Source: Mobula hypostoma
Lineage: Eukaryota
Reading direction: 5' to 3'
Length of the DNA stretch: 64,000 nt
NCBI RefSeq assembly: GCF_963921235.1
Contig: NW_026948141.1
Span: 186,001-250,000 of the forward strand
The notes below the pieces were generated by a model, which did not search any database, was not told the DNA's origin, and was given only the letters and a program-made list of their open reading frames with translations. The position numbers and the translations under genes were made by a program. Of the stretch, positions 49,407-64,000 are shown piece after piece. Positions within the stretch are counted from its first letter, which is position 1; each line of letters opens with the position of its first letter.

Positions 49407-51410
49407 TTATTTTTGTGTTAGCCATGGAGGTCATTGTGAGGGCTGCAGAATCAGTGGGACCAGGTGTCGCACTTGATGGCAGAGGGGAGTTACCACCAAT
49501 ATGAGCATTCATGGACGATTTCACCCTTTTGGGTCCCAGCAACGGAGGCAGTGGAAAATGTACTATCTAGACTCGAGGAGCTAATGGATTGGGGAAGAAT
49601 GAAGTTCAAGACCAAGAAGTCAAGGAGCCTTGTTCTTAGGAGAGGAAAGCTGGTTGACTTTCATTTCACCCTTTGTGGAGAGGAGATTCCATCCATTCAG
49701 GACCAACCAGTTAAGAACCAGAGGAGCTGAGAGTCACCAAGAGGGTTCAAGAGACAGGAGGACAGATCAGCAGAGGTCTGATGTCTGTTGACAAGCGTGG
49801 CTTGCCTGGCAAGTTGAAGTTGTGCTTGTAGTACAGACTGATGCCACAGATAATGTGGCCATTAACTGTCTGTGAAGTGGCAATGTCCCACGTTGAGGCA
49901 ATGGAACGGAAGATCAACAAGTATGTGAAGAAGTGGCTTGGAGTACTGAGCAGCCTCACCAATGTTGCAATCCACAATAGCCAGACAAAGCTTACCATCC
50001 CAGTGCAATCCCTTGTTGAGAAAGTCAAGGTAGCTAAGGTAAGATCATTCTTGATGCTTCGAGACTCAAAAGACCCTGTCATCAAGAACGCCCAGCCGGA
50101 TGTGAGATCAGGCAGGAAGTGGTCAGCCCATGTAGCAGTTGATGAGGCAGAGTCTAGATTGAAGCACAAGGAGATGGTTGGGGCTACCCAGCTAAGCCGC
50201 CAGGGACTTGGATGGACAACCCACAAGTGGTGGTCATCTTCCACAGGTAAGGAGCTTGTAACACAAGAAGTACGAGAGGTAGAAGAGGAGAAGAGGTTAG
50301 CTAAAACAGCTGGCCTGGCCAAACAAGGGGCTTGGACCTGGTGGGAAAGTGTTGAACAACGACATCCATCTTGGAATGTTCTGTGGCAGATGGAACCACT
50401 CCGCATTTCTTTTCCACACAGAGCAATGTACGATCTGCTCCCAACACCTGCCAACCTCAGCACCTGGTATGAAGATAAGACAGACAGGTGTGCTGCTTGT
50501 GGCGAGAAGGGAAAATATTTTGAGTCCATGCAGAGTCAATCTTTCCAGTGGCATGTACACTTGGAGACATAACAACGTTCTCAAAATTGTAACAGAAGTG
50601 GGTGAGCAGAGAGTACTTCAGCACAACTTATCTCATGCCCCATGCTGCACAGAACATCGCATATCATTTGTGAAAGAAGGCTCCAAGTCAAGGGTGTACA
50701 GCGCAGGCTCACGATCAAGCATACTTTCCTCAGCCAATGATTGGTGTGTCAAGGCTGACCTGGATGGGAAAGGCAGTTTCCCGGAGCAAATAGCTTTCAC
50801 CACATTGCGTCCAGATATAATCGTATGGTCTGACACCAGTAGAGAAGTGGTTATTGGTGAACTCACAGTCCCCTGGGAAGACAACATCGATGAAGCCCAT
50901 GAGCGCAAGTTAACCAAGTATGCAGAGTCAAGATCAGAGTGCAGAGACAGAGGGTGGAAGGTCTCATGCTATCCATTCGAAGTAGGCTGCCATGGGTTTA
51001 TTGCGTTCACTTTCCAGAAGTGGCTGCGTGACCTTGGCTTCACTAGAAGAGAGATCAAGTCAACCAGCAGGGCTGTAGCTGAGGCAGCAGAGACAGGACC
51101 AGCATGGGTGTGGACCAAGTATGTCCAGAGGGGCAGAGAGTCGGACAGTGTATCCATCTTTTGCAAACCCTTCAGTAGTTGCATAGACACCTGAAGAGTA
51201 GACTATCTGTTGGATGGAAGCAACCAACAACTCTGATAGAGGCAGATGCCAAGTTTTTAAGCTCACCAGTGGGAGGTGGTGCTTTAGCACTGCTGATCCA
51301 CCACCTCGAGGGAGCCTTGATCATAAGCGGGCCGAAACTCCTGAAGACAGGTGGCAGATCAACTGATGATCCCTCTGGTGATAGCACAGGACAGTTAACA
51401 TCTTAGTCCA
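49407..51410 (+). mobile_element. 5'-truncated Hero-like (R2 group) non-LTR retrotransposon with restriction-like endonuclease
   Basis: LFVLAME...AFMDD (RT), GLPGKLK, GRKWSA, YDLLPTPANL, CAACGEKG knuckle, YTWRHNNVL, RPDIIVWS...ELTVPWED...ERKLTKY and PFEVGCHGF. Several stops and frameshifts. Inserted in a Penelope 3' tail (49080-49405 / 51440-51505). Confidence 0.9.
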
Positions 51411-51571
51411 CGTGTATTTTGTAACTCTTTCCCTCACTTGACTGACTTGCTGAGTTCCTCCAGCATTTTGTGTGTGTTGCCTGGATTTCCAGCATCTGCA
51501 GAACCTCCTGCATTTGTGATCTGCTACCATTCTCTACCAGCTGCAGTTCCCTCATCTGTCACCTTATCCTC

Positions 51572-53143: not shown

Positions 53144-54745
53144 CATAGAAAAACTACAGAACCATAGAAACTGCAGCACAGAAACAGGCCCTTTGGCCCT
53201 TCTTGGCTGTGCCGAACCATTTTCTGCCTAGTCCCACTGACCTGCACACAGACCATATCCCTCCATACACCTCCCATCCATGTATCTGTCCAATTTATTC
53301 TTAAATGTTAAAAAAGAACCCGCATTTACCACCTCATCTGGCAGCTCATTCCATACTCCCACCACTCTCTGTGTGAAGAAGCGCCCCCCCAATGTTCCCT
53401 TTAAACTTTTCCCCCCTCACCCTTAACCCATGTCCTCTGGTTTTTTTCTCCCCTTGCCTCAGTGGAAAAAGCCTGCTTGCATTCACTCTATCTATACCCA
53501 TCATAATTTTATATACCTCTATCAAATCTCCCCTCATTCTTCTACGCTCCAGGGAATAAAGTCCTAACCTATTCAACCTTTCTCTGTAACTGAGTTTCTC
53601 AAGTCCCGGCAACATCCTTGTAAACCTTCTCTGCACTCTTTCAACCTTATTTATATCCTTCCTGTAATTTGGTGACCAAAACTGAACACAATACTCCAGA
53701 TCCGGCCTCACCAGTGCCTTATACAACCTCATCATAACATTCCAGCTCTTATACTCAATACTTCGATTAATAAAGGCCAATGTACCAAAAGCTCTCTTTA
53801 CGACCCTATCTACCTGTGACGACACCTTTAGGGAATTTTGTATCTGTATTCCCAGATCCCTCTGTTCCACTGCACTCCTCAGTGCCTTACCATTAACCCT
53901 GTATGTTCTACCTTGGTTTGTCCTTCCAACGTGCAATACCTCACACTTGTCAGTATTAAACTCCATCTGCCATTTTTCAGCCCAATTTTCCAGCTGGTCC
54001 AAGTCCCTCTGCAGGCTCTGAAAACCTTCCTCATTGTCTACTACACCTCCAATCTTTGTATCATCAGCAAACTTGCTGATCCAATTTACCACATTATCAT
54101 CCAGATCATTGATATAGATGACAAATAACAATGGACCCAGCACTGATCCCTGTGGCACACCACTAGTCACAGGCCTCCACTCAGAGAAGCAATTCTCTAC
54201 CACCACTCTCTGGCTTCTTCCATCGAGCCAATGTCCAATCCAATTTACCACCTCTTCATGTATACCTAGCGACTGAATTTTCCTAACTAACCTCCCATGC
54301 GGGACCTTGTCAAAGGCCTTACTGAAGTCCATGTAGACAATATCCACTGCCTTCCCTTCATCCACTTTCCTGGTAACCTCCTTGAAAAACTCCAATAGAT
54401 TGGTCAAACATGACCTACCATGCACAAAGCCATGTTGACTCTCCCTAATAAGCCCTTGTCTATCCAAATGCTTGTAGATTCTGTCTCTTAGTACTCCCTC
54501 CAATAACTTACCTACTACTGACGTTAAACTCACCGGCCTATAATTTCCCGGATTACTTTTCGATCCTTTTTTAAACAACGGAACAACATGAGCCACTCTC
54601 CAATCCTCCGGCACCCCACCTGTAGACAGCGACATTTTAAATATTTCTGCCAGGGCCCCCGCAATTTCAACACCAGTCTCCTTCAAGGTCCGAGGGAACA
54701 CCCTGTCAGGTCCCGGGGATTTATCCACTTTAATTTTCCTCAAGA
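53144..54745 (-). mobile_element. Young 5'-truncated CR1 LINE with open RT
   Basis: ORF 53346-54743 (465 aa), nearly identical to ORF 42326-43684. Confidence 0.95.
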
Positions 54746-54839
54746 TAGAGTAGAGTTGTCAAACATAAGTTGGAATCAAGACCAACACAACAGCATGAAC
54801 CAAGTTGCCCATCCATTGCTGTTCTATTCTCCTACTTAA

Positions 54840-55050: not shown

Positions 55051-58000
55051 CTCCTCCTTTCACAGCCGGGTTTGGGACTGTCCATGGGGAGTTCATACCC
55101 GTTCCTCCTCCTTTCACAGCCAGGTTTGGGACTGTCCATGGGGAGTTCATACCCAACCCTCCTCCTTTCACAGCCGGGTTTGGGACTGTCCTTGGGGAGT
55201 TCATACCCAACCATCCTCCTTTCACAGCCGGATTTGGGACTTTCCATGGGGAGTTCATACCTGTTCCTCCTCCTTTCACAGCCGGGTTTGGGACTGTCCA
55301 TGGGGAGTTCATACCCGACCCTTCTCCTTTCACAGCCGGGTTTGGGACTGTCCATGGGGAGTTCATACCCGTTCCTCCTCGTTTCACAGCCAGGTTTGGG
55401 ACTGTCCATGGGGAGTTCATACCCGTTCCTCCTCCTGTCACAGCCAGGTTTGGGACTGTCCATGGGGAGTTCATACCCAACCCTCCTCCTTTCACAGCCA
55501 GGTTTGGGACTGTCCTTGGGGAGTTCATACCCAACCATCCTCCTTTCACAGCCGGATTTGGGACTTTCCATGGGGAGTTCATACCTGTTCCTCCTCCTTT
55601 CACAGCCGGGTTTGGGACTGTCCATGGGGAGTTCATACCCGACCCTTCTCCTTTCACAGCCAGGTTTGGGACTGTCCATGGGGAGTTCATACCCAACCCT
55701 CCTCCTTTCACAGCCAGGTTTGGGACTGTCCATGGGGTTCATACCCCCTCCTCCTTTCACAGCCGGGTTTGGGACTGTTCATGGGGAGTTCATACCCAAC
55801 CCTCCTCCTTTCACAGCCGGTTTGGACTGTAGGTCAGCCGTTTGGGACTCATGGGGAGTTCATACCCGTTCCTCCTCCTTTCACAGCCGGGTTTGGGACT
55901 GTCCATGGGGAGTTCATACCCAACCCTCCTCCTTTCACGTTCATACCCGTTCCTCCTCCTTTCACAGCCGGGTTTGGGACTGTCCATGGGGAGTTCATAC
56001 CCAACCCTCCTCCTTTCACAGCCGGGTTTGGGACTGTCCATGGGGAGTTCATACCCAACCCTCCTCCTTTCACAGCCGGGTTTGGGACTGTCCATGGGGA
56101 GTTCATACCCAACCCTCCTCCTTTCACAGCCGGGTTTGGGACTGTCCATGGGGAGTTCATACCCAACCCTCCTCCTTTCACAGCCGGGTTTGGGACTGTC
56201 CATGGGGAGTTCATACCCGTTCCTCCTCCTTTCACAGCCGGGTTTGGGACTGTCCAGGGGAGTTCATACCCGTTCCTCCTCCTTTCACAGCCGGGTTTGG
56301 GACTGTCCATGGGGAGTTCATACCCAACCCTCCTCCTTTCACAGCCGGGTTTGGGACTGTCCATGGGGAGTTCATACCCAACCCTCCTCCTTTCACAGCC
56401 GGGTTTGGGACTGTCCATGGGGAGTTCATACCCAACCCTCCTCCTTTCACAGCCGGGTTTGGGACTGTCCATGGGGAGTTCATACCCAACCCTCCTCCTT
56501 TCACAGCCAGGTTTGGGACTGTCCATGGGGAGTTCATACCCGTTCCTCCTCCTTTCACAGCCGAGTTTGGGACTGTCGATGGGGAGTTCATACCCGTTCC
56601 TCCTCCTTTCACAGCCGGGTTTGGGACTGTCCATGGGGAGTTCATACCCGTTCCTCCTCCTTTCACAGCCAGGTTTGGGACTGTCCATGGGGAGTTCATA
56701 CCCGTTCCTCCTCCTTTCACAGCCGGGTTTGGGACTGTCGATGGGGAGTTCATACCCGTTCCTCCTCCTTTCACAGCCGGGTTTGGGACTGTCCATGCAG
56801 AGTTCATACCCGTTCCTCCTCCTTTCACAGCCGGGTTTGGGACTGTCCATGGGGAGTTCATACCCGTTCCTCCTCCTTTCACAGCCGGGTTTGGGACTGT
56901 CGATGGGGAGTTCATACCCGTTCCTCCTCCTTTCACAGCCGGGTTTGGGACTGTCCATGCGGAGTTCATACCCAACCCTCCTCCTTTCACAGCCAGGTTT
57001 GGGACTGTCCATGGGGAGTTCATACCCGTTCCTCCTCCTTTCACAGCCGTGTTTGTGACTGTCGATGGGGAGTTCATACCCGTTCCTCCTCCTTTCACAG
57101 CCGGGTTTGGGACTGTCCATGCGGAGTTCATACCCAACCCTCCTCCTTTCACAGCCGGGATTGGGACTGTCCATGGGGAGTTCATACCCGTTCCTCCTCC
57201 TTTCACAGCCGGGTTTGGGACTGTCCATGGGGAGTTCATACCCAACTCTCCTCCTTTCACAGCCGGGTTTGGGACTGTCCATGGGGAGTTCATACCCGTT
57301 CCTCCTCCTTTCACAGCCGGGTTTGGGACTGTCCATGGGGAGTTCATACCTGTTCCTCCTCCTTTCACAGCCGGGTTTGGGACTGTCCATGGGGAGTTCA
57401 TACCCGTTCCTCCTCCTTTCACAGCCGGGTTTGGGACTGTCCATGGGGAGTTCATACCCGTTCCTCCTCCTTTCACAGCCGGGTTTGGGACTGTCGATGG
57501 GGAGTTCATACCCGTTCCTCCTCCTTTCACAGCCGGGTTTGGGACTGTCCATGCGGAGTTCATACCCAACCCTCCTCCTTTCACAGCCGGGTTTGGGACT
57601 GTCCATGGGGAGTTCATACCCGTTCCTCCTCCTTTCACAGCCGGGTTTGGGACTGTCCATGGGGAGTTCATACCCGTTCCTCCTCCTTTCACAGCCGGGT
57701 TTGGGACTGTCCATGGGGAGTTCATACCCAACCCTCCTCCTTTCACAGCCGGATTTGGGATTTTCCATGGGGAGTTCATACCTGTTCCTCCTCCTTTCAC
57801 AGCCGGGTTTGGGTCTGTCCATGGGGAGTTCATACCCGACCCTTCTCCTTTCACAGCCAGGTTTGGGACTGTCCATGGGGAGTTCATACCCAAGCCTCCT
57901 CCTTTCACAGCCAGGTTTGGGACTGTCCATGGGGAGTTCATACCCAACCCTCCTCCTTTCACAGCCGGGTTTGTGACTGTCCATGGGGAGTTCATACCCA

Positions 58001-61000
58001 ACCCTCCTCCTTTCACAGCCGGGTTTGGGACTGTCCATGGGGAGTTCATACCCAACCCTCCTCCTTTCACAGCCGGGTTTGGGACTGTCCATGGGGAGTT
58101 CATACCCGTTCCTCCTCCTTTCACAGCCGGGTTTGGGACTGTCCATGGGGAGTTCATACCCGTTCCTCCTCCTTTCACAGCCGGGTTTGGGACTGTCCAT
58201 GGGGAGTTCATACCCGTTCCTCCTCCTTTCACAGCCGGGTTTGGGACTGTCCATGGGGAGTTCATACCCAACCCTCCTCCTTTCACAGCCGGGTTTGGGA
58301 CTGTCCATGGGGAGTTCATACCCAACCCTCCTCCTTTCACAGCCGGGTTTGGGACTGTCCATGGGGAGTTCATACCCGTTCCTCCTCCTTTCACAGCCAG
58401 GTTTGGGACTGTCCATGGGGAGTTCATACCCGTTCCTCCTCCTTTCACAGCCGGGTTTGGGACTGTCGATGGGGAGTTCATACCCGTTCCTCCTCCTTTC
58501 ACAGCCGGGTTTGGGACTGTCCATGCGGAGTTCATACCCGTTCCTCCTCCTTTCACAGCCGGGTTTGGGACTGTCCATGGGGAGTTCATACCCGTTCCTC
58601 CTCCTTTCACAGCCGGGTTTGGGACTGTCCATGCGGAGTTCATACCCAACCCTCCTCCTTTCACAGCCGGGTTTGGGACTGTCCATGGGGAGTTCATACC
58701 CGTTCCTCCTCCTTTCACAGCCGGGTTTGGGACTGTCCATGGGGAGTTCATACCCAACTCTCCTCCTTTCACAGCCGGGTTTGGGACTGTCCATGGGGAG
58801 TTCATACCCGTTCCTCCTCCTTTCACAGCCGGGTTTGGGACTGTCCATGGGGAGTTCATACCTGTTCCTCCTCCTTTCACAGCCGGGTTTGGGACTGTCC
58901 ATGGGGAGTTCATACCCGTTCCTCCTCCTTTCACAGCCGGGTTTGGGACTGTCCATGGGGAGTTCATACCCGTTCCTCCTCCTTTCACAGCCGGGTTTGG
59001 GACTGTCGATGGGGAGTTCATACCCGTTCCTCCTCCTTTCACAGCCGGGTTTGGGACTGTCCATGCGGAGTTCATACCCAACCCTCCTCCTTTCACAGCC
59101 GGGTTTGGGACTGTCCATGGGGAGTTCATACCCGTTCCTCCTCCTTTCACAGCCGGGTTTGGGACTGTCGATGGGGAGTTCATACCCGTTCCTCCTCCTT
59201 TCACAGCCGGGTTTGGGACTGTCCATGCGGAGTTCATACCCAACCCTCCTCCTTTCACAGCCGGGTTTGGGACTGTCCATGGGGAGTTCATACCCGTTCC
59301 TCCTCCTTTCACAGCCGGGTTTGGGACTGTCCATGGGGAGTTCATACCCAACTCTCCTCCTTTCACAGCCGGGTTTGGGACTGTCCATGGGGAGTTCATA
59401 CCCGTTCCTCCTCCTTTCACAGCCGGGTTTGGGACTGTCCATGGGGAGTTCATACCTGTTCCTCCTCCTTTCACAGCCGGGTTTGGGACTGTCCATGGGG
59501 AGTTCATACCCGTTCCTCCTCCTTTCACAGCCGGGTTTGGGACTGTCCATGGGGAGTTCATACCCGTTCCTCCTCCTTTCACAGTCAGGTTTGGGACTGT
59601 CCATGGGGAGTTCATACCCGTTCCTCCACCTTTCACAGCCGGGTTTGGGACTGTCGATGGGGAGTTCATACCCGTTCCTCCTCCTTTCACAGCCGGGTTT
59701 GGGACTGTCCATGCGGAGTTCATACCCGTTCCTCCTCCTTTCACAGCCGGGTTTGGGACTGTCCATGGGGAGTTCATACCCGTTCCTCCTCCTTTCACAG
59801 CCGGGTTTGGGACTGTCCATGGGGAGTTCATACCCGTTCCTCCTCCTTTCACAGCCGGGTTTGGGACTGTCCATGGGGAGTTCATACCCAACCCTCCTCC
59901 TTTCACAGCCGGGTTTGGGACTGTCCATGGGGAGTTCATACCCGTTCCTCCTCCTTTCACAGCCGGGTTTGGGACTGTCCATGGGGAGTTCATACCCGTT
60001 CCTCCTCCTTTCACAGCCGGGTTTGGGACTGTCCATGGGGAGTTCATACCCAACCCTCCTCCTTTCACAGCTGGGTTTGGGACTGTCCATGGGGAGTTCA
60101 TACCCAACCCTCCTCCTTTCACAGCCGGGTTTGGGACTGTCCATGGGGAGTTCATACCCGTTCCTCCTCCTTTCACAGCCGAGTTTGGGACTGTCCATGT
60201 GGAGTTCATACCCAACCCTCCTCCTTTCACAGCTGGGTTTGGGACTGTCCATGGGGAGTTCATACCCAACCCTCCTCCTTTCACAGCCGGGTTTGGGACT
60301 GTCCATGGGGAGTTCATACCCAACTCTCCTCCTTTCACAGCCGGGTTTGGGACTGTCCATGGGGAGTTCATACCCGTTCCTCCTCCTTTCACAGCCGAGT
60401 TTGGGACTGTCCATGTGGGAGTTCTATCCGTTCATACCCAACCCTCCTCCTTTCACAGCTGGGTTTGGGACTGTCCATGGGGAGTTCATACCCAACCCTC
60501 CTCCTTTCACAGCCGGGTTTGGGACTGTCCATGGGGAGTTCATACCAAACCCTCCTCCTTTCACAGCCGGGTTTGGGACTGTCCATGGGGAGTTCATACC
60601 CGTTCCTCCTCCTTTCACAGCCGGGTTTGGGACTGTCCATGTGGAGTTCATACACGTTCCTCCTCCTTTCACAGCTGGGTTTGGGACTGTCCATGGGGAG
60701 TTCATACCCAACCCTCCTCCTTTCACAGCCGGGTTTGGGACTGTCCATGGGGAGTTCATACCCAACGATCCTCCTTTCACAGCCGGGTTTGGGACTGTCC
60801 ATGCGGAGTTCATACCCGTTCCTCCTCGTTTCACAGCCGGGTTTGGGACTGTCCATGGGGAGTTCATACCCGTTCCTCTTCCTTTCACAGCCGGGTTTGG
60901 GACTGTCCATGGGGAGTTCATACCCAACCCTCCTCCTTTCACAGCCGGGTTTGGGACTGTCCATGGGGAGTTCATACCCGTTCCTCCTCCTTTCACAGCC

Positions 61001-64000
61001 GGGTTTGGGACTGTCCACGGGGAGTTCATACCCGTTCCTCCTCCTTTCACAGCCGGGTTTGGGACTGTCCATGGGGAGTTCATACCCAACCTTCCTCCTT
61101 TCACAGCCGGGTTTGGGACTGTCCATGGGGAGTTCATACCCAACCCTCCTCCTTTCACAGCCGGGTTTGGGACTGTCCATGGGGAGTTCATACCCGTTCC
61201 TCCTCCTTTCACAGCCGGGTTTGGGACTGTCCATGGGGAGTTCATACCCGTTCCTCCTCCTTTCACAGCCGGGTTTGGGACTGTCGATGGGGAGTTCATA
61301 CCCGTTCCTCCTCCTTTCACAGCCGGGTTTGGGACTGTCCATGCGGAGTTCATACCCGTTCCTCCTCCTTTCACAGCCGGGTTTGGGACTGTCCATGGGG
61401 AGTTCATACCCGTTCCTCCTCCTTTCACAGCCGGGTTTGGGACTGTCGATGGGGAGTTCATACCCGTTCCTCCTCCTTTCACAGCCGGGTTTGGGACTGT
61501 CCATGCGGAGTTCATACCCAACCCTCCTCCTTTCACAGCCGGGTTTGGGACTGTCCATGGGGAGTTCATACCCGTTCCTCCTCCTTTCACAGCCGGGTTT
61601 GGGACTGTCCATGGGGAGTTCATACCCAACTCTCCTCCTTTCACAGCCGGGTTTGGGACTGTCCATGGGGAGTTCATACCCGTTCCTCCTCCTTTCACAG
61701 CCGGGTTTGGGACTGTCCATGGGGAGTTCATACCTGTTCCTCCTCCTTTCACAGCCGGGTTTGGGACTGTCCGTGGGGAGTTCATACCCGTTCCTCCTCC
61801 TTTCACAGCCGGGTTTGGGACTGTCCATGGGGAGTTCATACCCGTTCCTCCTCCTTTCACAGCCGGGTTTGGGACTGTCGATGGGGAGTTCATACCCGTT
61901 CTGCCTCCTTTCACAGCCGGGTTTGGGACTGTCCATGCGGAGTTCATACCCAACCCTCCTCCTTTCACAGCCGGGTTTGGGACTGTCCATGGGGAGTTCA
62001 TACCCGTTCCTCCTCCTTTCACAGCCGGGTTTGGGACTGTCGATGGGGAGTTCATACCCGTTCCTCCTCCTTTCACAGCCGGGTTTGGGACTGTCCATGC
62101 GGAGTTCATACCCAACCCTCCTCCTTTCACAGCCGGGTTTGGGACTGTCCATGGGGAGTTCATACCCGTTCCTCCTCCTTTCACAGCCGGGTTTGGGACT
62201 GTCCATGGGGAGTTCATACCTGTTCCTCCTCCTTTCACAGCCGGGTTTGGGACTGTCGATGGGGAGTTCATACCCGTTCCTCCTCCTTTCACAGCCGGGT
62301 TTGTGACTGTCCATGCGGAGTTCATACCCAACCCTCCTCCTTTCACAGCCGGGTTTGGGACTGTCCATGGGGAGTTCATACCCGTTCCTCCTCCTTTCAC
62401 AGCCGGGTTTGGGACTGTCCATGGGGAGTTCATACCCAACTCTCCTCCTTTCACAGCCGGGTTTGGGACTGTCCATGGGGAGTTCATACCCGTTCCTCCT
62501 CCTTTCACAGCCGGGTTTGGGACTGTCCATGGGGAGTTCATACCTGTTCCTCCTCCTTTCACAGCCGGGTTTGGGACTGTCCATGGGGAGTTCATACCCG
62601 TTCCTCCTCCTTTCACAGCCGGGTTTGGGACTGTCCATGGGGAGTTCATACCCGTTCCTCCTCCTTTCACAGCCAGGTTTGGGACTGTCCATGGGGAGTT
62701 CATACCCGTTCCTCCTCCTTTCACAGCCGGGTTTGGGACTGTCGATGGGGAGTTCATACCCAACTCTCCTCCTTTCACAGCCAGGTTTGGGACTGTCCTT
62801 GGGGAGTTCATACCCGTTCCTCCTCCTTTCACAGCCGGGTTTGGGACTGTCCATGGGGAGTTCATACCCAACCCTCCTCCTTTCACAGCCGGGTTTGGGA
62901 CTGTCCATGGGGAGTTCATACCCAACTCTCCTCCTTTCACAGCCGGGTTTGGGACTGTCCATGGGGAGTTCATACCCAACCCTCCTCCTTTCACAGCCGG
63001 GTTTGGGACTGTCCTTGGGGAGTTCATACCCGTTCCTCCTCCTTTCACAGCCGGGTTTGGGACTGTCCATGCGGAGTTCATACCCGTTCCTCCTCCTTTC
63101 ACAGCCGGGTTTGGGACTGTCCATGGGGAGTTCATACCCGTTCCTCCTCCTTTCACAGCCGGGGTGGGACTGTCGATGGGGAGTTCATACCCGTTCCTCC
63201 TCCTTTCACAGCTGGGTTTGGGACTGTCCATGCGGAGTTCATACCCAACCCTCCTCCTTTCACAGCCGGGTTTGGGACTTTCCATGGGGAGTTCATACCC
63301 GTTCCTCCTCCTTTCACAGCGGAGTTTGGGACTGTCCATGGGGAGTTCATACCCGTTCCTCCGCCTTTCACAGCCGGGTTTGGGACTGTCCATGGGGAGT
63401 TCATACCCAACCCTACTCCTTTCACAGCTGGGTTTGGGACTGTCCATGGGGAGTTCATACCCGTTCCTCCTCCTTTCACAGCCGGGTTTGGGACTGTCCA
63501 TGGGGAGTTCATACCCGTTCCTCCTCCTTTCACAGCCGAGTTTGGGACTGTCCATGTGGAGTTCATACACGTTCCTCCTCCTTTCACAGCTGGGTTTGGG
63601 ACTATCCATGGGGAGTTCATACCCAACCCTCCTCCTTTCACAGCTGGGTTTGGGACTGTCCATGGGGAGTTCATACCCAACCCTCCTCCTTTCACAGCCG
63701 GGTTTGGGACTGTCCATGGGGAGTTCATACCAAACCCTCCTCCTTTCACAGCCGGGTTTGGGACTGTCCATGGGGAGTTCATACCCGTTCCTCCTCCTTT
63801 CACAGCCGGGTTTGGGACTGTCCATGTGGAGTTCATACACGTTCCTCCTCCTTTCACAGCTGGGTTTGGGACTGTCCATGGGGAGTTCATACCCAACCCT
63901 CCTCCTTTCACAGCTGGGTTTGGGACTGTCCATGGGGAGTTCATACCCAACGATCCTCCTTTCACAGCCGGGTTTGGGACTGTCCATGCGGAGTTCATAC
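55045..64000. repeat. 54-bp satellite array (>160 copies, runs off window)
   Basis: Unit ctcctcctttcacagccgggtttgggactgtccatggggagttcatacc(cgttc/caacc). Confidence 0.98.

Follow-up and report, generated by a model that had tools for sequence, protein, structure and literature searches.

INTRODUCTION

The closest described relatives of the RNA domain analysed here are the type-SGC hammerhead ribozymes (the HRIMA-1 motif and its variants), reported by Eckert, Friedrich, Weinberg and Weinberg (Nucleic Acids Research, 2023; PMC10085705). The domain itself lies in the 3' untranslated region (UTR) of a plausibly Hero-like element, a long interspersed nuclear element (LINE) of the restriction-like endonuclease (RLE) type, in a 64-kb window of Mobula hypostoma (contig NW_026948141.1, 186,001 to 250,000, forward strand); the window is the whole stretch of DNA that was analysed, and all coordinates refer to it. 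According to the main text of the 2023 article, the three conserved blocks of the type-SGC ribozymes, namely the cleavage strand (S), GAAA (G) and CUGANGA (C), follow one another in the order S>G>C, five examples cleave in vitro at the predicted site, and each of the four helices has been verified in one variant by disruptive and compensatory mutations (PMC10085705). The same text describes activity in cis with co-transcriptional cleavage, and known alignments in which insertions between A9 and G10.1 comprise at most one or two nucleotides. The examples come from metatranscriptomes, metagenomes and one bacterial record, stand beside hairpin ribozymes and are presumed to belong to circular RNA agents (PMC10085705). 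This was the first report of non-circular permutations of a ribozyme, in unidentified RNA agents of metatranscriptomes.

The domain in the Hero-like 3' UTR shares with the type-SGC ribozymes, as presented in the main text of PMC10085705, the order of the S, G and C blocks, the crossing of the three stems, the conserved core, a short linker leading from stem I to stem II, and a fourth helix that joins the other sides of both stems. An initial annotation, made from the sequence of the window, had suggested a possibly undescribed architecture, and as far as the block order is concerned that suggestion is superseded by this publication. In type-SGC, however, block C is unbroken, as CUGANGA runs straight into the 10.x strand of stem II, whereas the domain described here has this strand 5' of the cleavage block and, between A9 and G10.1, a closing helix (P1) and a hairpin. 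The setting also differs, with presumed circular RNA agents on the one side and the 3' UTR of an animal LINE on the other. Type-CSG and type-GCS, as treated in the same text, belong to the same circular permutation class and are opened between blocks (PMC10085705), whereas the present form, also a circular permutation of that SGC/GCS/CSG class, has its opening within block C. The block order is thus already known; the split block C and the LINE setting are new.

At the 5' end of R2 and other LINEs, ribozymes resembling that of hepatitis delta virus (HDV) free the element from its co-transcript. Martick et al. (2008) reportedly described a discontinuous hammerhead in mammalian Clec2 3' UTRs, which resembles the present domain in its 3' UTR location and in being unusually split; it is said to have the canonical order, a long loop insertion and a host gene as its setting, unlike the permuted LINE form. 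The HDV-like ribozymes of R2 and other LINEs, in the passages of PMC3774820 that deal with them, are likewise built into the RNA of an RLE-type LINE and cleave it, as is predicted here; they have a different fold and stand at the 5' end, whereas the domain described here lies in the 3' UTR, with a predicted cut ~105-112 nt before the 3' end. Penelope-like elements and retrozymes, in the relevant passages of PMC4209133 and PMC7229834, also carry a hammerhead core within a retrotransposon, and some relatives reported below share with them a head-to-tail arrangement with one ribozyme per unit. However, their hammerheads are unknotted three-way junctions that Rfam-type models find, whereas the present one is pseudoknotted, and their hosts encode a GIY-YIG endonuclease or none, whereas the present host is an RLE-type LINE.

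In literature searches, from which some subscription journals were excluded, no report of a hammerhead in LINEs of the Hero or RLE type was found. Branchiostoma, Danio, reverse transcriptase and any retroelement host were absent from a word search of the main text and one supplement file of PMC10085705, and no LINEs appeared in the passages searched of a 2026 paper citing the permutations.

RESULTS

Hammerhead core of the window copy and of its family

In the 3' UTR of the window copy, the initial annotation had recognized the core of a hammerhead whose stems cross and whose cleavage strand is followed first by GAAA and then by CUGANGA. All of its motifs are found where it had placed them, with GGAG at 51311-51314, C at 51315 and again at 51316, TTGATC at 51317-51322, GAAA at 51334-51337, CTCC at 51338-51341, GATCAA at 51357-51362 and CTGATGA at 51363-51369, and the GGAG/CTCC and TTGATC/GATCAA pairs are indeed complementary in the hammerhead register. 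The same order of the core recurs in distant relatives (see below). The parts of the domain are, in 5' to 3' order:

51263..51274, + strand: 5' strand of P1 (TCACCAGTGGGA), the outer closing helix; 12 bp with 51370-51381 in family copies, kept in minimum free energy folds
51279..51290, + strand: P2, a small hairpin (GTGC TTTA GCAC) read from the sequence, between the P1 5' strand and stem II
51295..51299, + strand: stem II 10.x strand; GGCCC in the family, GATCC in the window, with two pairs broken
51301..51305, + strand: helix IV 5' strand, CCACC; pairs with 51350-51354 and links stems I and II at their far ends
51311..51315, + strand: stem III 16.x strand; GGAGT in the family, C at 51315 in the window
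51316, + strand: position 17 (C); predicted cut 51316/51317, by analogy with the hammerhead core
51317..51322, + strand: stem I 1.x strand, TTGATC; pairs with 51357-51362
51323..51328, + strand: A-rich linker between the stem I 1.x and stem II 11.x strands
51329..51333, + strand: stem II 11.x strand, GGGCC, directly before GAAA
51334..51337, + strand: GAAA, corresponding to G12, A13, A14 and A15.1; core conserved in relatives
51337..51341, + strand: stem III 15.x strand, ACTCC; covaries in alignments
51350..51354, + strand: helix IV 3' strand, GGTGG; covaries in alignments
51357..51362, + strand: stem I 2.x strand, GATCAA; pairs with TTGATC and covaries
51363..51369, + strand: CTGATGA, corresponding to C3 to A9; core conserved in relatives
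51370..51381, + strand: P1 3' strand, beginning directly after A9; TCCCACTGGTGA in the family, one mismatch in the window (T at 51374)

The cleavage triplet of the window copy reads GCC, for which the initial annotation had suggested the change C51315T. Of 30 aligned copies of the family, 25 have T and 5 have C at 51315, and exact 32-mers counted genome-wide give 429 copies with GTC vs 21 with GCC. The family triplet is therefore the canonical GUC, the suggested change restores the family state, and GCC is a deviation of a minority of copies, among them the window copy, in which the A15.1-U16.1 pair is absent because of the C at 51315. Two more changes are private to this copy, namely GATCC for GGCCC at 51295-51299 and T for A at 51374. 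The window copy is dead; it lacks its 5' part and carries three changes that disable it. The family consensus, to which the initial annotation had looked for confirmation, has U16.1, conserved cores and covariation in both stems.

The poor pairing of stem II noted at first does not extend to the family, in which the 10.x strand lies upstream, at 51295-51299; two of its pairs are broken in the window copy. An alternative helix, gaggga/tccctc, had also been pointed out; it is weaker in the family, where most copies have TCCCAC, and the outer helix exists instead at 51263-51274/51370-51381. At the site of P2, relatives carry insertions of 17-29 nt, in which hairpins were recognized by eye in two loci only (L082 and L099).

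Occurrence of the arrangement in distant relatives

A profile of 17 proteins retrieved 78 loci from metagenome contigs, with 32-61% protein identity to the query, and the end of the open reading frame (ORF) is present in 55 of them. CTGANGA occurs within 600 nt after the stop codon in 41/55 loci. A strict scan, which demanded GAAA, CTGANGA, U16.1, a base other than G at H17 and at least 4/5 pairs in stems I and III, recovered the arrangement after the stop codon in 37/55 3' UTRs of these distant relatives. With 40 dinucleotide shuffles as a control, the mean was 0.1/55 and the maximum 1/55, and the same scan gave 0 each in reversed sequences, in reverse complements and in the 700 nt of upstream coding sequence. 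Among the 18 loci missed, at least 7 have just 44-115 nt past the stop, and several others are visibly decayed versions of the motif, e.g. with G12 to A (L087) or C3 to T (L080). In this genome, the strict motif is intact in 25/30 and 27/30 sampled copies of the family. Moreover, when 80 sources were searched with a covariance model of helices III and IV, which leaves out stems I and II, 55 matches reached E<=0.01; the window was among them (56.1 bits), and each match lay on the same strand as the ORF. The arrangement is therefore beyond chance.

The motif-bearing relatives are nearest to proteins of fish, bivalves and amphioxus. In five of the relatives (L044, L047, L049, L052 and L066), the contigs represent either units joined head to tail or circular assemblies, and each unit has a single ORF and a single ribozyme. 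Their units measure 3.7-3.8 kb (3713 nt in L044, 3836 nt in L047), and the repeats at the contig ends are identical over 111 nt in L044 and over 55 nt in L047, while they reach 93% over 235 nt in L066, 92% over 90 nt in L049 and 98.7% over 77 nt in L052. In L044, the non-coding spacer is just 293 nt long, and 162 nt separate the ribozyme from the downstream start codon (ATG) of an intact ORF of 1139 aa.

Two further observations concern these loci. The nearest outside relative seen is a metagenome contig (L101:141-224) with a ribozyme nearly identical to that of the family in this genome; its ORF piece is equally close, at 79% identity, to the query and to a protein of Branchiostoma belcheri. 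Strings resembling the T-arm of tRNAs (GGTTCGA.TCC-like) are found between the stop codon and the ribozyme in L064, L065, L102, L107 and L118, and ARAGORN called no tRNA in 6 relative loci.

Covariation and conservation of the core

Two alignments were used, one made with MAFFT from 36 sequences and fitted to no helix, the other a covariance-model alignment of 51 distinct rows. The proportion of cells that are paired is 85.5% in the MAFFT alignment and 91.0% in the model alignment. When the 3' letters were shuffled, it fell to 62.7% (the observed value being reached by 0/500 shuffles) and 63.8%, respectively, and when the partners were slid, to 39.5-48.6% and 39.6-47.0%. Covariation scores are 0.533 vs 0.170 for MAFFT and 0.630 vs 0.176 for the model alignment. 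Changes on both sides affect 17/20 pairs in both alignments; this measure alone is not distinct from shuffles, 18/500 and 124/500 of which reach it, and the case for covariation is carried by the cell-level measures and the slid controls.

Considered helix by helix, stem I is paired at 89.9% (MAFFT) and 96.3% (model alignment, unfitted), with 5/5 pairs changed on both sides. For stem II, which is also unfitted in the model alignment, the values are 75.4% and 80.4%, with 4/5 pairs changed on both sides. The two helices to which the model was fitted each have 4/5 pairs changed on both sides as well, and are paired at 92.0% (MAFFT) and 97.1% (model alignment) for stem III, and at 84.1% and 90.2% for helix IV.

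In the GAAA block, G12 is found in 50/51 rows and A13, A14 and A15.1 in 51/51, and U16.1 is present in 49/50 rows, the window copy being the sole exception. Within CUGANGA, C3 is conserved in 45/50 rows, U4 in 50/50, G5 in 50/50, A6 in 49/50, G8 in 48/50 and A9 in 50/50, while any of the four bases may occur at N7 (T 27, A 12, C 9, G 2). Position H17, in 50 rows, is C in 20, U in 11, A in 19 and never G. The commonest first pair of stem II is G10.1-C11.1, present in 40/50 informative rows (51 distinct, one gapped). The variation of the core is thus the pattern of a hammerhead, including one free position and one forbidden base.

Placement of stem II and the closing helix P1

The strand before GAAA forms 5/5 pairs with the upstream strand in 27/36 distinct sequences, as compared with 17% in a control with swapped partners, and the compensating pairs found in this stem include GATG/CATC, GTTG/CAAC, GACT/AGTC, GCTC/GAGC and GGTG/CACC. 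When the partner was sought directly after A9 instead (offsets 0-2), 5/5 pairs were obtained in 0/36 sequences and 4/5 in 5/36. A canonical stem II after A9 was therefore rejected. Since the strand of stem II lies upstream and not after CUGAUGA, the domain is a further variant of the type-SGC hammerhead.

The nucleotides after A9 belong to another helix. The best P1 helix begins directly after A9 in 19/38 rows, is mostly 9-14 bp long, and in 26/38 rows has a score that reaches at least the 95th percentile obtained with mismatched partners. Moreover, a compensatory double change in P1, from C-G to U-A at 51266/51378, is present at full depth in contigs of two other organisms. A box C/D or k-turn reading, assessed by eye, in which CUGAUGA would be joined to CUGA at 51341-51344, was dropped given the conservation of GAAA, of the UH site and of the four helices.

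Proposed cleavage and alternative explanations

From these comparisons of sequences, we consider it probable that the 3' UTR of the Hero-like LINE encodes a pseudoknotted hammerhead ribozyme related to type-SGC. The structure and the core are conserved; catalysis would be expected by analogy, from the core itself and from the activity of the type-SGC relatives. In the proposed fold, the RNA would run from the P1 5' strand through P2, the stem II 10.x strand and the helix IV 5' strand into a first block (stem III 16.x-U-H17-stem I 1.x), and from there through the A-rich linker into a second (stem II 11.x-GAAA-stem III 15.x), the helix IV 3' strand, a third block (stem I 2.x-CUGANGA) and the P1 3' strand. 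The three hammerhead stems would mutually cross, helix IV would connect the far ends of stems I and II in place of the loop-loop contact of ordinary hammerheads, and both the 5' and the 3' end of the domain would exit through P1, seated between A9 and G10.1.

In such a fold, the 2'-OH of C17 (51316) would be in line for attack on the 51316/51317 phosphate. Of the resulting products, the one carrying the ORF would end in a 2',3'-cyclic phosphate, and the other, a 3' fragment of ~105-112 nt, would begin with a 5'-OH. Some 27 bp, in P1 and in helices II, III and IV, would keep the two fragments together, so that re-ligation is conceivable. Our best guess for the role of the cut is a controlled nick that would divide transcripts between use as template and use as messenger. 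In the head-to-tail families, cleavage would resolve multimeric transcripts into single units, each cut releasing the 5' end of the unit that follows. A wider proposal, which is possible but which we put forward with reserve, would be that the domain represents a new natural hammerhead permutation, in which the RNA starts and stops within the CUGANGA block and a helix separates A9 from G10.1, that it is catalytically active, and that across animals the Hero-clade LINEs require it in cis (nearest proteins from amphioxus, teleosts and bivalves), with a reversible nick as its mode of action. Head-to-tail units would then give rise to unit-length RNAs, perhaps circularised, as autonomous counterparts of retrozymes.

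Contigs of four other organisms were aligned to a family copy. Across organisms, the 3' half of the UTR hardly varies, with 0 differences in 93 nt in one contig and 1 in 130 nt in another, whereas the contigs over the ORF end differ by 8-11% across the same four organisms. The predicted cut is spanned by contigs in all four, and none of the contigs listed ends at it, although contigs cannot show RNA ends.

Several observations weigh against a working ribozyme. The genomic copies all extend ~105-112 nt beyond the predicted cut, and since sequence on both sides of the cut is present in all of them, the RNA that was reverse-transcribed must have been uncut, re-ligated or bridged. A 5' truncation hot spot at the cut was not detected, as 0/24 mapped 5' ends fall there, the nearest lying 18 nt upstream and 33 nt downstream; six further copies that run to the edge of their locus are not among these 24. 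A helix and a hairpin (P1 and P2) inserted between A9 and G10.1 have no precedent and could disturb this region of the core. Core changes occur in several relatives (C3 to U, G8 to A, G12 to A), which are maybe decayed copies, one diverged contig (organism G) combines G8 to C with a deletion of 12 nt around P2, and 21 genomic copies, counted as exact 32-mers, have C at 16.1. Finally, Rfam 15 gave no hammerhead match (types I, II, III, HH9 and HH10) at E<=10 in the window segment 50800-51900, and no family match at E<=1 in 8 loci with intact motifs. The processing of the 3' end of the element RNA, which the initial annotation had proposed as the function, is not supported in its simple form, because the copies share a 3' end ~105-112 nt past the cut and none of the 24 mapped 5' ends lies at it.

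LINEs of the RLE type recognise their own 3' UTR, and the domain could be a hammerhead-shaped docking platform for the reverse transcriptase of the element, in which cleavage would not occur, would be negligible or would not matter, and whose core would be kept for the sake of the fold. The copies that always span both sides of the cut and the lack of truncations at the cut among the mapped 5' ends fit this explanation, as does an insertion at A9/G10.1 that could disable catalysis. The UTR core is also more conserved than the ORF end across species, as would befit any essential cis element, and the relevant passage of PMC12222951 reports binding of the R2 protein to a 3' UTR RNA with a pseudoknot. 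However, every catalytic position obeys the hammerhead rule, down to the free N7 and the missing G at position 17, and cleavage would be expected from a correctly folded hammerhead core; according to the main text of PMC10085705, type-SGC relatives with the same helices do cleave. A platform of this kind is unlikely, although it deserves to be taken seriously, and a cleaving hammerhead remains the explanation that we prefer.

Small hammerheads associated with Penelope elements act as dimers, and crossing stems could in principle be resolved in trans, as the initial annotation had envisaged with a ribozyme formed between two RNA molecules. A single RNA, however, contains all partner strands within ~120 nt, inside a closing helix that covaries, so that a dimer is not needed, and a linker of 4-10 nt between stems I and II matches that of the cis-acting type-SGC ribozymes described in the main text of PMC10085705. 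We regard a dimer as very improbable.

An ordinary type-SGC ribozyme, as published, with stem II formed by the nucleotides after CUGANGA, would account for the S>G>C order and for the helix joining stems I and II, both of which match the description in the main text of PMC10085705. The full pairing after A9 in 0/36 sequences, against covarying upstream pairs in 27/36, and the engagement of the nucleotides after A9 in P1 make this explanation extremely improbable. A chance resemblance inside a structured UTR, which might be invoked for a single GCC copy with a poor stem II (roughly 1 in 1000 per 64-kb window by our own arithmetic), is refuted by the comparative data, namely the strict scan vs shuffles, the covariation and the core pattern, and its probability is negligible.

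Implications

The domain would place a member of the permuted hammerhead class in a defined and very abundant animal retrotransposon, and would thereby offer a tractable biological setting for permuted hammerheads. It breaks the assumption that block C cannot be interrupted, which underlies the listing of possible hammerhead permutations in the main text of PMC10085705. Searches that assume an unbroken block C, as well as the Rfam models, miss the form in which this block is split. A cleaving domain would also constitute a second ribozyme class for RLE-type LINEs, at the end of the RNA opposite to that of the HDV-like ribozymes of R2. The effect that a cut ~105-112 nt before the 3' end would have on target-primed reverse transcription becomes a concrete question.

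The element, its genomic family and neighbouring sequences

The remaining features of the element in the window are:

49440..51140, + strand: ORF remnant of the element, 5'-truncated and frameshifted; the ORF calls cover the C-terminal part of the reverse transcriptase, a zinc-binding region and the restriction-like endonuclease
Equivalent of 51138-51140, + strand: family stop codon TAG; GAG in the window copy, so that the frame stays open for 54 nt more, to 51194
51141..51428, + strand: 3' UTR of the family, from 30 aligned copies with unrelated flanks; copies end at ~51421-51428, with two tail variants

The two variants of the 3' tail, GTAACTC(T) and CAATTC, follow ...TGTATTTT and diverge at ~51421 (loci L001-L030), and the tail has neither poly(A) nor a simple repeat. 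Hero was described from Branchiostoma and Lytechinus, and the nearest named proteins are uncharacterised ones of Branchiostoma (63-69% identity) and Lytechinus (63%); numerous proteins of teleosts and bivalves come next, at 40-50%. Relatives have a single ORF of 1139-1152 aa. In an intact relative of the ORF (L039:5918-7771, a C-terminal fragment), RVT_1 and zf-RVT scored 21.3 and 21.2 bits, both below the Pfam cut-offs, and a by-eye reading found a restriction-like endonuclease pattern at the end of its translation; the translation of the window ORF contains strings that we take to be of the RHN and PD..E..K types. On the basis of these sequence features, the assignment of the element as a Hero-like, RLE-type LINE is plausible.

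In the genome of 3.48 Gb, there are at least 1700 candidate matches to the UTR, with 96-100% identity in the 40 that were scored, 9837 candidates for the C-terminal protein, and 875 exact copies of a 34-mer of the ribozyme. Searches with DNA and protein for divergent families gave, among the matches listed, the young family only (DNA identity 96-98%, protein identity 90-95%). Most family copies are 5'-truncated. The full-length element measures ~4.86 kb and has a defined 5' end and one ribozyme, and two full-length copies have the same start base, unrelated flanks and one ribozyme apiece. No tandem arrangement was found in this genome, where the copies are dispersed.

Just beyond the 3' end of the element, 51439-51510 corresponds to a different interspersed repeat, which recurs with 83-94% identity in the flanks of L010, L019, L020, L028 and L029. 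Further downstream, a 470-aa open frame on the minus strand (53346-54758) with an RVT_1 match (E 1e-36) is a fragment of another, unrelated retroelement. From 55051 to 62600 and beyond, the window consists of a 54-bp satellite (~140 copies, 93% match), which accounts for a stop-free frame of 2157 aa on the + strand and for long open frames on the - strand.

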